From the IMG/VR virus record IMGVR_UViG_2534681835_000019: a stretch of DNA of 14,986 bases. One strand, written 5' to 3'. This document shows positions 7,800-7,934 of the stretch, one piece after another. Below the pieces are notes generated by a model that saw only the letters and a list, made by a program, of their open reading frames with translations, was not told where the DNA came from and ran no database searches. A program made the position numbers and the translations under genes. Every line of letters starts with the position of its first letter. The first letter of the stretch is position 1. Source of the DNA: a virus (Duplodnaviria; Heunggongvirae; Uroviricota; Caudoviricetes).

Positions 7800-7898
7800 A
7801 ATTTCTTTCCGTTATTGTTGACAATAAGAACTGTTTTCATTTAAAAAACCAGAGCACGAAAGTATCGTTCCTTTATTTTTTCTCCATAGGTATTACCA

Positions 7899-7934
7899 CC
7901 GCCAGCGTCCATTCCTGTCGCTGGCGGTTTTTTT
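7899..7934 (+). terminator. Rho-independent terminator with plus-strand polarity, just past the nanS-p stop
   Basis: CCGCCAGCG-tccattcctgt-CGCTGGCGG followed by TTTTTTT on the plus strand. On the minus strand the hairpin is followed by UGGUAAUACC, not a U-run. Confidence 0.6.

Follow-up and report, generated by a model that had tools for sequence, protein, structure and literature searches.

What does an intrinsic terminator serve when it is read against the operon in which it lies and no gene precedes it? The question is raised by positions 7818-7934 of the plus strand of IMG/VR virus record IMGVR_UViG_2534681835_000019 (Caudoviricetes), a stretch of 14,986 nucleotides that we refer to as the window and that is of the type of a lambdoid, Stx-phage-type prophage late region transcribed from the minus strand. 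We propose, with a probability of about 70%, that this segment is a gene for an RNA of ~80 nt belonging to the lineage of Esr41 (EcOnc14), the Hfq-dependent small RNA (sRNA) of the enterohaemorrhagic Escherichia coli (EHEC) island SpLE1/OI-43, and that the RNA would likewise depend on Hfq and act in trans at ribosome-binding sites. Judged by its sequence, the element, undescribed until now, is best filed as a diverged Esr41-lineage member in the cassette slot that the sRNAs PasA and PasC occupy in Stx-type prophages. The features on which this proposal draws are the following.

7818-7823, plus strand: -35 hexamer TTGACA of the predicted sRNA promoter, from the sequence and its conservation
7842-7847, plus strand: predicted -10 element TAAAAA behind an 18-nt spacer (17 nt in copies one T shorter), from alignment with the TATATA of Esr41
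~7853-7934, plus strand: predicted small RNA of ~80 nt, its 5' end placed within 3 nt either way from the geometry of the Esr41 promoter and its 3' end in the U-tract
7858-7880, plus strand: weak A-U/G-U 5' stem-loop of uncertain register, from the minimum-free-energy fold and the cmscan alignment to the Esr41 5' hairpin
7876-7887, plus strand: single-stranded U-rich stretch with the candidate seed UUUUUUCUCCAU, of which the invariant TTCTCCAT lies at 7880-7887
7899-7927, plus strand: terminator hairpin with a perfect, GC-rich 9-bp stem (8 G-C pairs) and an 11-nt loop, from sequence and folding
7899-7907, plus strand: left arm of the hairpin, CCGCCAGCG
7908-7918, plus strand: loop of the hairpin, 11 nt
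7919-7927, plus strand: right arm of the hairpin, CGCTGGCGG
7928-7934, plus strand: T7 tract, from the sequence; terminator tail and predicted likely 3' binding site of Hfq

Direct reading of the sequence found the hairpin and, on the plus strand only, its T7 tract exactly where the preliminary description of this locus had placed them. A GC-rich hairpin followed by a U-tract on the transcribed strand is the arrangement of an intrinsic terminator; on the minus strand A7 precedes the hairpin and UGGUAAUACC follows it, and since no U-run lies behind the hairpin in that direction, it terminates plus-strand transcription only. The T7 tract ends one base short of the stop codon of the nanS-p-type esterase gene (7936-7938; TCA on the plus strand, TGA on the minus strand). 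When a terminator is defined strictly, by a perfect stem of 8 bp or more, a loop of 3-12 nt and six or more T within 2 nt, this is the sole one on either strand of the whole window, and 300 dinucleotide shuffles of the window yielded 0.007 such sites per window (0.7%); a simpler terminator scan, which allows loops of no more than 8 nt, for that reason picked up just a 5-bp sub-stem inside it. The plus-strand fold of 7848-7934 has a free energy of -24.9 kcal/mol (z = -4.68; none of 200 shuffles was as stable), and the hairpin alone one of -17.8 kcal/mol. The earlier remark that no plus-strand open reading frame (ORF) lies ahead of the hairpin agrees with our scan, which found none of at least 20 aa between 7822 and 7934, and there is no ATG, GTG or TTG on the plus strand within 7848-7934.

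The TTGACA reported upstream of the hairpin was likewise found by direct reading at 7818-7823. By itself the hexamer is not significant, with 7 matches in the window against 9.7 expected; it carries weight because it is conserved in related loci. The -10 candidates first suggested, TTTAAA and TTAAAA, are replaced by TAAAAA at 7842-7847, which comes into register when the two loci are aligned, TTGACA/18 nt/TAAAAA in the window standing opposite TTGACA/18 nt/TATATA in Esr41. Written out in order, the window locus reads TTGACA-ataagaactgttttcatt-TAAAAA-accag-A...UUUUUUCUCCAUAGGUAUUACCACCGCCAGCG...CGCUGGCGGUUUUUUUAUCA and the Esr41 locus TTGACA-acgctaactatttttaat-TATATA-ttcat-GAUGCUCUAGGCAUCACAUUUUCUCCAUGGGGUAUUCCCUCCGCCGGCACUAUGUGUUGCUGGCGUUUUUUUAUCA, with two 18-nt spacers that are themselves alike (AACTGTTTTCATT in the window, AACTATTTTTAAT in the Esr41 promoter). 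Such a sigma-70 promoter, with its weak -10, is predicted to start transcription at ~7853, six bases past the -10 as in Esr41, and transcription would stop at the 9-bp hairpin and U7, a very strong predicted signal that faces the convergent nanS-p stop, giving an RNA of ~80 nt. A short, non-coding, antisense-oriented transcript, as the preliminary description had envisaged, is supported by the Esr41 homology and by the conserved hairpin and promoter; the length of ~100 nt suggested there is replaced by ~80 nt.

Two further observations concern the promoter and the T-run. The homopolymers around the -10 (7838-7848) differ among near-identical copies, which read TTTAAAAAA, TTAAAAAA or TTAAAAA with spacers of 17 or 18 nt, and the T-run at 7928-7934 varies from T6 to T9 among otherwise near-identical copies; such length changes could tune promoter strength or termination. 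A 16-bp palindrome over the -35, TTATTGTTGACAATAA (7812-7827), was considered as an operator and rejected: it is broken in the ABU83972, O104:H4 and MLI109-type copies (TTATGGTTGACAATGA) and is therefore treated as chance.

The relationship to Esr41 extends over the whole of the predicted RNA. At Rfam gathering thresholds nothing was found in 7800-7940, and in a permissive E-value search (search space of 181-301 nt) the Esr41 model RF02676 matched 7859-7936 on the plus strand over model positions 1-74, with 29.6 bits and E-values of 4e-4 to 7e-4; the genuine Esr41 gene of Sakai SpLE1 scores 108.6 bits with the same model. Local alignment of the window with the Esr41 locus scored 52 against 18 ± 2.4 for shuffled sequences (z ~14), and about 57 of 85 RNA positions (~67%) are identical. 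Common to the two are the motif UUUUCUCCAU, the linker and the terminator arms (CGCC(A/G)GC./.GCUGGCG, with one compensatory G-C to A-U change), and the tail U7-AUCA, both loci ending in TTTTTTTATCA; the four bases behind the U-run that are shared with Esr41 are, in the window, the complement of the esterase stop codon. The architecture of Esr41, in which a 5' hairpin, single-stranded UUUUCUCCAU, a small hairpin and a GC-rich terminator with U7 follow one another, is matched as well, the middle hairpin being partly kept, as is its size (~74-80 nt). Furthermore, the MLI109-type E. coli copy carries an Esr41-like 5' hairpin, GAUGU-CGAAA-GCAUC, and by its sequence is an intermediate that bridges the window and Esr41 forms.

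The two elements differ in several respects. Esr41 lies in SpLE1/OI-43 between z1181 and z1182, whereas the window element lies between the SASA esterase and DUF1378 genes of a lambdoid late operon. In the window element the -10 is weaker than in Esr41 and neither the 5' hairpin nor the linker is the same, and its target range may therefore differ from that of Esr41. A BLASTN search with Esr41 retrieved the SpLE1-type locus only, in 695 genomes (one place per genome in the median and never more than two, with identities of 95% or higher throughout), and returned neither phage records nor window-type copies, whereas the window element occupies 1-7 places per genome with a median of 2. This behaviour of BLASTN may be why the literature on Esr41 and prophage sRNAs that we examined makes no mention of the relationship. 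Zhu et al. (bioRxiv 10.64898/2026.05.13.724894) report that cmscan matches labelled 'Esr41' are frequent near PasD; these probably correspond to the window element.

The element is widespread and its conservation is uneven. Of 5,426 complete E. coli genomes, 953 carry a 141-nt segment, which occurs in them at 2,162 places altogether, and 441 nt spanning the element have matches of 99-100% identity in many Stx1 and Stx2 phages, with 306 phage records in all. The preliminary description had made its proposal depend on conservation of the hairpin in homologous loci, and the hairpin proved to be retained: among 98 loci assembled from phage contigs, E. coli genomes and Pas/EcOnc loci, 96 have a stable hairpin with T6-9 that abuts the esterase stop on the antisense strand. 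In the loci that have the hairpin, a distance of 98-132 nt separates TTGAC[AT] from the end of the T-run downstream of it, the exception being one variant (two loci) with TTAACT. The bodies between promoter and terminator fall into window-type, ABU/MLI-type, SJ7-type, AVS0196-type, L097-type, PasC, EcOnc52-type and PasA, and TTGACA or TTGACT is kept in PasC, EcOnc52-type, Esr41 and AVS0196-type despite unrelated upstream context. The AVS0196-type, with a 35-nt loop and a different body, retains TTGACA-17-TAGAAA and the stem CCGCCAGCA/UGCUGGCGG.

Among 11 divergent copies, 72-100% identical overall, mean pairwise identity was 0.92 in the -35, 0.95 in the -10, 0.54 in the presumed start region, 0.76 in the 5' stem-loop and 1.00 in each of TTCTCCAT, the stem cores and the T-run, compared with 0.58 at third codon positions of the adjacent esterase gene. 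This is the pattern that selection on a promoter, on a motif for pairing and on a terminator would produce. Similarly, TTCTCCAT and the terminator core are invariant in 13 aligned variants, Esr41 included, the core being CCGCCAG/CTGGCGG throughout the Esr41-like set.

A covariance model, R1, was built from these 13 Esr41-like variants and covers 7848-7936 in the window. It recognized the AVS0196-type, on which it had not been trained, with E-values of 7e-6 to 4.5e-4, and the L097-type with an E-value of 0.025. Two of its matches bear on individual prophages. In Sakai Sp5 (locus L016, NC_002695.2 1270503-1271812) an IS629 insertion splits nanS-p, and the Esr41-like element downstream of the esterase C-terminal fragment is intact (100.4 bits); one Sakai copy is located at NC_002695.2 ~1272085-1272173 on the minus strand. 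A weak match (18.9 bits, E = 0.013) on the minus strand of PP4 of strain E2348/69 (locus L018, 813-916; NC_011601 ~1060612-1060715) lies between PasD1 and the holin gene in a prophage without an esterase gene, and may be a remnant of this same cassette. A scan of genome contigs with an esterase C-terminal profile added three loci (E. albertii and Escherichia sp.), one with the PasA arrangement and two without an antisense terminator; with these three Escherichia loci as its whole yield, the scan gives no view past that genus.

The slot in which the element lies is one that houses validated sRNAs. PasA (85 nt in its major form and 236 nt in a minor one) and PasC (79 nt) were validated by Northern blot and Hfq-dependence in enteropathogenic E. 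coli (EPEC) prophages, where they adjoin a sialate esterase gene in antisense orientation to it, PasA lying between the esterase gene E2348C_0688 and E2348C_0689; the authors equate PasA with the EHEC peaks EcOnc51 and EcOnc52 that Tree et al. (PMC4104026) obtained by crosslinking and analysis of cDNAs (CRAC) with Hfq (Pearl Mizrahi et al., PMC8550237, Table S6). The order has been named 'esterase-PasA-holin-lysozyme' (Zhu, Shabalina and Storz, bioRxiv 10.64898/2026.05.13.724894). The window element, too, lies between the sialate esterase and the holin/lysis genes on the opposite strand, and ends in a 3' stem-loop and poly-U abutting the esterase stop, as PasC and EcOnc52 do. The hairpin at which PasC, EcOnc52 and the minor form of PasA end, AGCCAGCG...CGCTGGCT with T7, abuts the esterase stop in antisense, EcOnc52 being an Hfq-CRAC peak on this very terminator, and each of the PasC, PasA and EcOnc52 loci has TTGACA ~100-113 nt upstream of the end of the T-run. 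The assignment of the window gene to the PasC/PasA/EcOnc51/52 slot, which position shows and sequence supports weakly, suggests that promoter and esterase-abutting terminator are kept and that the body would be exchangeable.

PasC (EPEC E2348/69) and EcOnc52 (Sakai Sp4) share with the window element the slot, the orientation, GCCAGCG...CGCTGGC with T7 and a length of ~78-79 nt; unlike it, they have a body that is unrelated at the BLAST level and lacks the UUUUCUCCAU motif, and downstream neighbours without DUF1378 and DUF826. PasA (EPEC) and EcOnc51 (Sakai Sp12) also lie in antisense between esterase and holin genes with a related terminator arm, GCCAGCAC/GUGCUGGC, and the minor 236-nt form of PasA extends as far as the terminator that abuts the esterase stop. 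A distance of ~150 nt lies between this stop and the end of the major 85-nt form, the body differs from that of the window element, and the proposed seed of PasA overlaps its terminator stem. In blastn and blastn-short searches, PasA, PasC, EcOnc51 and EcOnc52 matched the window in the terminator arms and the esterase end only (best E-value of 0.013 over 25 nt), and a classification of the element as a PasA or PasC variant by sequence was rejected because these matches are confined to the terminator arms. The search of phage genomes by Zhu et al. (bioRxiv 10.64898/2026.05.13.724894), with a filter of >75% coverage, placed Pas genes in 43 phage genomes, as against 306 phage records for the window-type variant. 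On the late-sense strand of PasA/PasC-type loci and of E. albertii (L002 2634-2663, L003 2545-2574, L005 1288-1317, L102/L103), a further hairpin with a T-run, GCCGCCAGTG...CACTGACGGC or AGCCACCAGT...ACTGATGGCT, is found immediately upstream of the holin gene; it looks like a sense-direction terminator, and the window holds no counterpart of it upstream of its holin gene.

The anti-sRNAs AgvB and AsxR of lambdoid and Stx prophages share a modular logic with the window element, in that they are short late-region sRNAs, antisense to the late transcript, and combine conservation in the 3' part with variation in the 5' part. They differ from it in lying upstream of nanS-p, in the moron site, in acting as sponges for host sRNAs and in their conserved 3' core UUGCCCGAACCCAYUCGGGC (UUGCCCGAACCCA), the tested part of which, TTGCCCGAACCCA, is absent from both strands of the window.

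If the homology to Esr41 extends to function, the mode of action can be sketched. The anatomy seen in the sequence, in which a weak 5' stem-loop is followed by the single-stranded U/C-rich UUUUUUCUCCAU, then by a short linker and lastly by a terminator whose U-tail is long, is the layout of an Hfq-dependent sRNA, and by homology Hfq would bind the RNA. Its UUUUCUCC(AU) stretch would then pair with GGAGAA-type ribosome-binding sites of host mRNAs and block their translation. Esr41, an Hfq-bound RNA of ~70 nt, represses cirA, chuA and bfr, with pairing confirmed by compensatory mutations (Waters et al., PMC5286369); a review locates Esr41 pairing at ribosome-binding sites, and in a chimera from crosslinking, ligation and sequencing of hybrids (CLASH) the Esr41 stretch (read as ATTTTCTCCACGGGG... 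/ AUUUUCUCCACGGGG...) is joined to a fragment with GGAGAAAA. Duplexes were predicted for the seed against the initiation region only, full-length RNAduplex runs having given meaningless long-range duplexes that were not used. The pairing predicted at the cirA Shine-Dalgarno sequence is -26.4 kcal/mol for Esr41, -21.9 kcal/mol for the window type and -18 to -19 kcal/mol for other Esr41-like variants; PasC reaches -8.0 kcal/mol, at a site different from that of all others. In the window type the 7-nt core UCUCCAU/AUGGAGA is kept in the predicted duplex and part of the extended pairing is lost, so that its target range may overlap that of Esr41 without being identical. A second target would be the nanS-p/DUF1378 intergenic part of the late mRNA, the processing of which could be affected: the RNA is antisense to the Q-dependent late transcript and thus matches the nanS-p/DUF1378 spacer with perfect complementarity. 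As the analogy with Esr41 and the Pas sRNAs suggests, the RNA probably acts mainly in trans through Hfq and not solely as a cis-antisense RNA.

Several observations weigh against this assignment. The 29.6 bits obtained with RF02676 are far under its gathering score of 102 bits, R1 scores for PasC (16.2 bits, E = 0.065) and EcOnc52 (13.4 bits, E = 0.34) are marginal only, and the sequence likeness to these two is confined to the terminator arms, so that the link to them is one of position and terminator. The -10 TAAAAA is weak, with 4 of 6 positions matching and no T at position 6, and a consensus promoter scan did not call the site. Part of the high conservation between the start of DUF1378 and the -10 could stem from the translation-initiation region of DUF1378 on the opposite strand. 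With regard to structure, RNAalifold on the 13 variants returned seven invariant pairs and no compensatory changes, the core stem pairs being invariant and therefore allowing no formal covariation within the Esr41-like set. Compensatory changes appear in two peripheral pairs only, against more distant variants aligned by eye: the loop-proximal G-C pair is A-U in Esr41, the AVS0196-type and PasA, and the outer C-G pair is A-U in PasC and EcOnc52. Support for the structure, for which covariation analysis had been proposed as a check, therefore rests on the persistence of the hairpin despite loops of 11-35 nt and on these two peripheral pairs. We found no transcript, transcription-start or Hfq-binding data for the window-type variant. 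Tree et al. (PMC4104026) list no EcOnc or Hfq peak at the Sakai Sp5 copy, a result to which multi-copy read mapping is a caveat, since near-identical copies in both Sakai Stx phages, VT1-Sakai and VT2-Sakai, may have hidden a peak. Supplementary files of RNase E-CLASH gave no match to the few neighbour labels that we guessed (ECs1210, ECs2970, antisense), which is a very weak negative.

These points raise the possibility of a decaying, silent copy, truly related to Esr41 and the Pas sRNAs, whose promoter is too weak for a functional RNA and which persists only as a terminator of the esterase module. The TAAAAA that the promoter scan passed over, the missing EcOnc peak at the Sakai Sp5 copy and the variable run lengths near the -10 (TTTAAAAAA, TTAAAAAA, TTAAAAA) speak for it. 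We nevertheless consider it unlikely, given that identities of 0.92-1.00 in TTCTCCAT, the -35, the -10 and the T-run contrast with 0.58 at the third codon positions of the esterase gene, and that the element has been retained at 2,162 places in 953 genomes. Moreover, a final T is missing from the -10 of Esr41 (TATATA) as well, and Esr41 is nonetheless abundant and bound by Hfq.

A regulator acting chiefly in cis is improbable to much the same degree. The OOP RNA of phage lambda offers the precedent: ~77 nt long, with its own promoter and intrinsic terminator, it runs antisense to the gene beside it, reaches over the 3' coding end of cII and exerts its effect in cis by way of RNase III. In the same manner the window RNA could pair with the nanS-p/DUF1378 spacer and lead to cleavage of the late mRNA or to altered expression of DUF1378, DUF826 and the holin. 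Its perfect complementarity to the late mRNA over ~80 nt, just upstream of the lysis genes, agrees with such a role, as does the presence of esterase-gene 3' ends among the PasA partners found by RIL-seq, which ligates and sequences interacting RNAs. Unlike OOP, however, the window RNA is predicted to end a single base short of the esterase stop codon and to begin ~54 nt away from the start codon of DUF1378, limits that leave coding ends and ribosome-binding sites outside it. Its close relative Esr41 acts in trans from SpLE1, where no esterase or DUF1378 gene adjoins it, and the invariant part of the element is a short motif, not the whole complementary stretch.

An insulator only was the alternative offered for the hairpin in the preliminary description; this reading, in which the hairpin and T7 would merely keep stray plus-strand transcription out of nanS-p and TTGACA would be incidental, is very improbable. 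The terminator is indeed strong and always abuts the esterase stop, and TTGACA alone is not enriched in the window; conservation of promoter and motif nonetheless disfavours an insulator as the sole function, given that TTGAC[AT] reappears, at 98-132 nt, in variants of the body whose upstream sequences are unrelated, that similarity to an established sRNA runs over the full length, promoter and UUUUCUCCAU included, and that an insulator gives no reason for the invariant TTCTCCAT. Least credible of all is a minus-strand feature, be it a gene for a 32-aa peptide (7841-7939), ATGA-coupled to nanS-p through an ATG that overlaps the esterase stop, which was rejected because the frame is shifted in most variants and cut to 8-21 aa, near-identical T8 copies included, or a 3' stabilizing hairpin of a processed nanS-p mRNA, which can form in the late mRNA too and leaves the polarity of the T-run, TTGACA and the Esr41 similarity unexplained.

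Returning to the trans-acting Esr41-lineage sRNA, a broader reading, which we advance tentatively and hold at somewhat below even odds, would make Esr41, PasC, PasA, EcOnc51/52, the window element and at least three undescribed bodies (SJ7-, AVS0196- and L097-type) forms of one modular late-operon sRNA cassette. Its TTGACA promoter and nanS-p-stop terminator would be fixed and its seed body swapped by recombination; Esr41 would be an escaped copy that still carries the esterase-stop 'ATCA', and Stx1 and Stx2 phages would each bring in between one and several UUUUCUCC-bearing copies that are possibly redundant with Esr41. The literature examined treats Esr41 as a single EHEC-specific regulator that is encoded on an island and controls iron uptake (cirA, chuA, bfr), colicin sensitivity, the enterocyte effacement locus (LEE) and motility. 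If the cassette reading is true, the prophage copies could act redundantly with Esr41 on all of these, and window-type copies remained in the published esr41 deletion strains.

If the element is expressed, a relative with the UUUUCUCC motif is present in those 953 complete E. coli genomes out of 5,426, with as many as seven places in each, and in the 306 phage records, with Stx1 and Stx2 phages among the carriers of a relative that BLAST with Esr41 misses. Phenotypes of single esr41 deletions may then be under-estimated because of the window-type copies, and the acquisition of an Stx phage could by itself alter iron and virulence regulation in the host. The value of the finding lies in this wide distribution and possible redundancy with Esr41, and tying Esr41 to the PasA/PasC slot would give a picture of prophage sRNA diversification in which promoter and terminator are fixed and the body is exchangeable.

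The surroundings of the element in the window, in minus-strand order, are as follows.

13493-13744: tRNA-Met/Arg/Arg cluster, first along the minus-strand order
10871-13287, plus strand: IS66-family insertion
10352-10783, minus strand: TerB-domain gene (Pfam)
10011-10183, minus strand: STnc100/PasD-like RNA (Rfam)
7936-9873, minus strand: nanS-p-type esterase of the late operon, 645 aa, with DUF1737, SASA and DUF6645 (Pfam; RefSeq/GenBank annotation of near-identical copies)
7620-7799, minus strand: DUF1378 small protein (Pfam, RefSeq annotation), with DUF826 next
7015-7230, minus strand: P21-type class II holin, after DUF826 (Pfam)

Upstream of the esterase gene, the STnc100 match (RF02076, 10011-10183 on the minus strand) scores 104.7 bits and is followed by the terminator GGCTGCGCATGGCGTGGCC with T8 (9968-9986), which includes the target sequence of the PasD Northern probe. 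The match and the terminator together point to an sRNA of the PasD/STnc100 type, giving the order PasD, esterase, Esr41-like element.

The IS66-family element at 10871-13287 is complete, with an HTH_Tnp_1 ORF, a TnpB_IS66 ORF and a 537-aa DDE_Tnp_IS66 transposase, and its insertion separates the tRNA cluster from the TerB gene, in an interval that corresponds to the region in which Stx phages carry their toxin genes. Upstream of the tRNA cluster and still inside the prophage lies a gene for an AraC-family regulator of 237 aa (13773-14486, minus strand). Elsewhere in the window, a 74-aa DUF3950 ORF (4071-4295, plus strand) runs antisense to the late operon, with a hairpin GCGAC-CACTAAA-GTCGC and T5 behind it at ~4319-4340 on the same strand. 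The first 135 nt of this ORF are 91% identical to Sakai ECs_2255, and its 3' half differs in the window; a strong Hfq-CRAC peak, EcOnc10, has been mapped at the 3' end of ECs_2255, and EcOnc11 and EcOnc12 are its apparent equivalents in Sp10 and Sp9, respectively.

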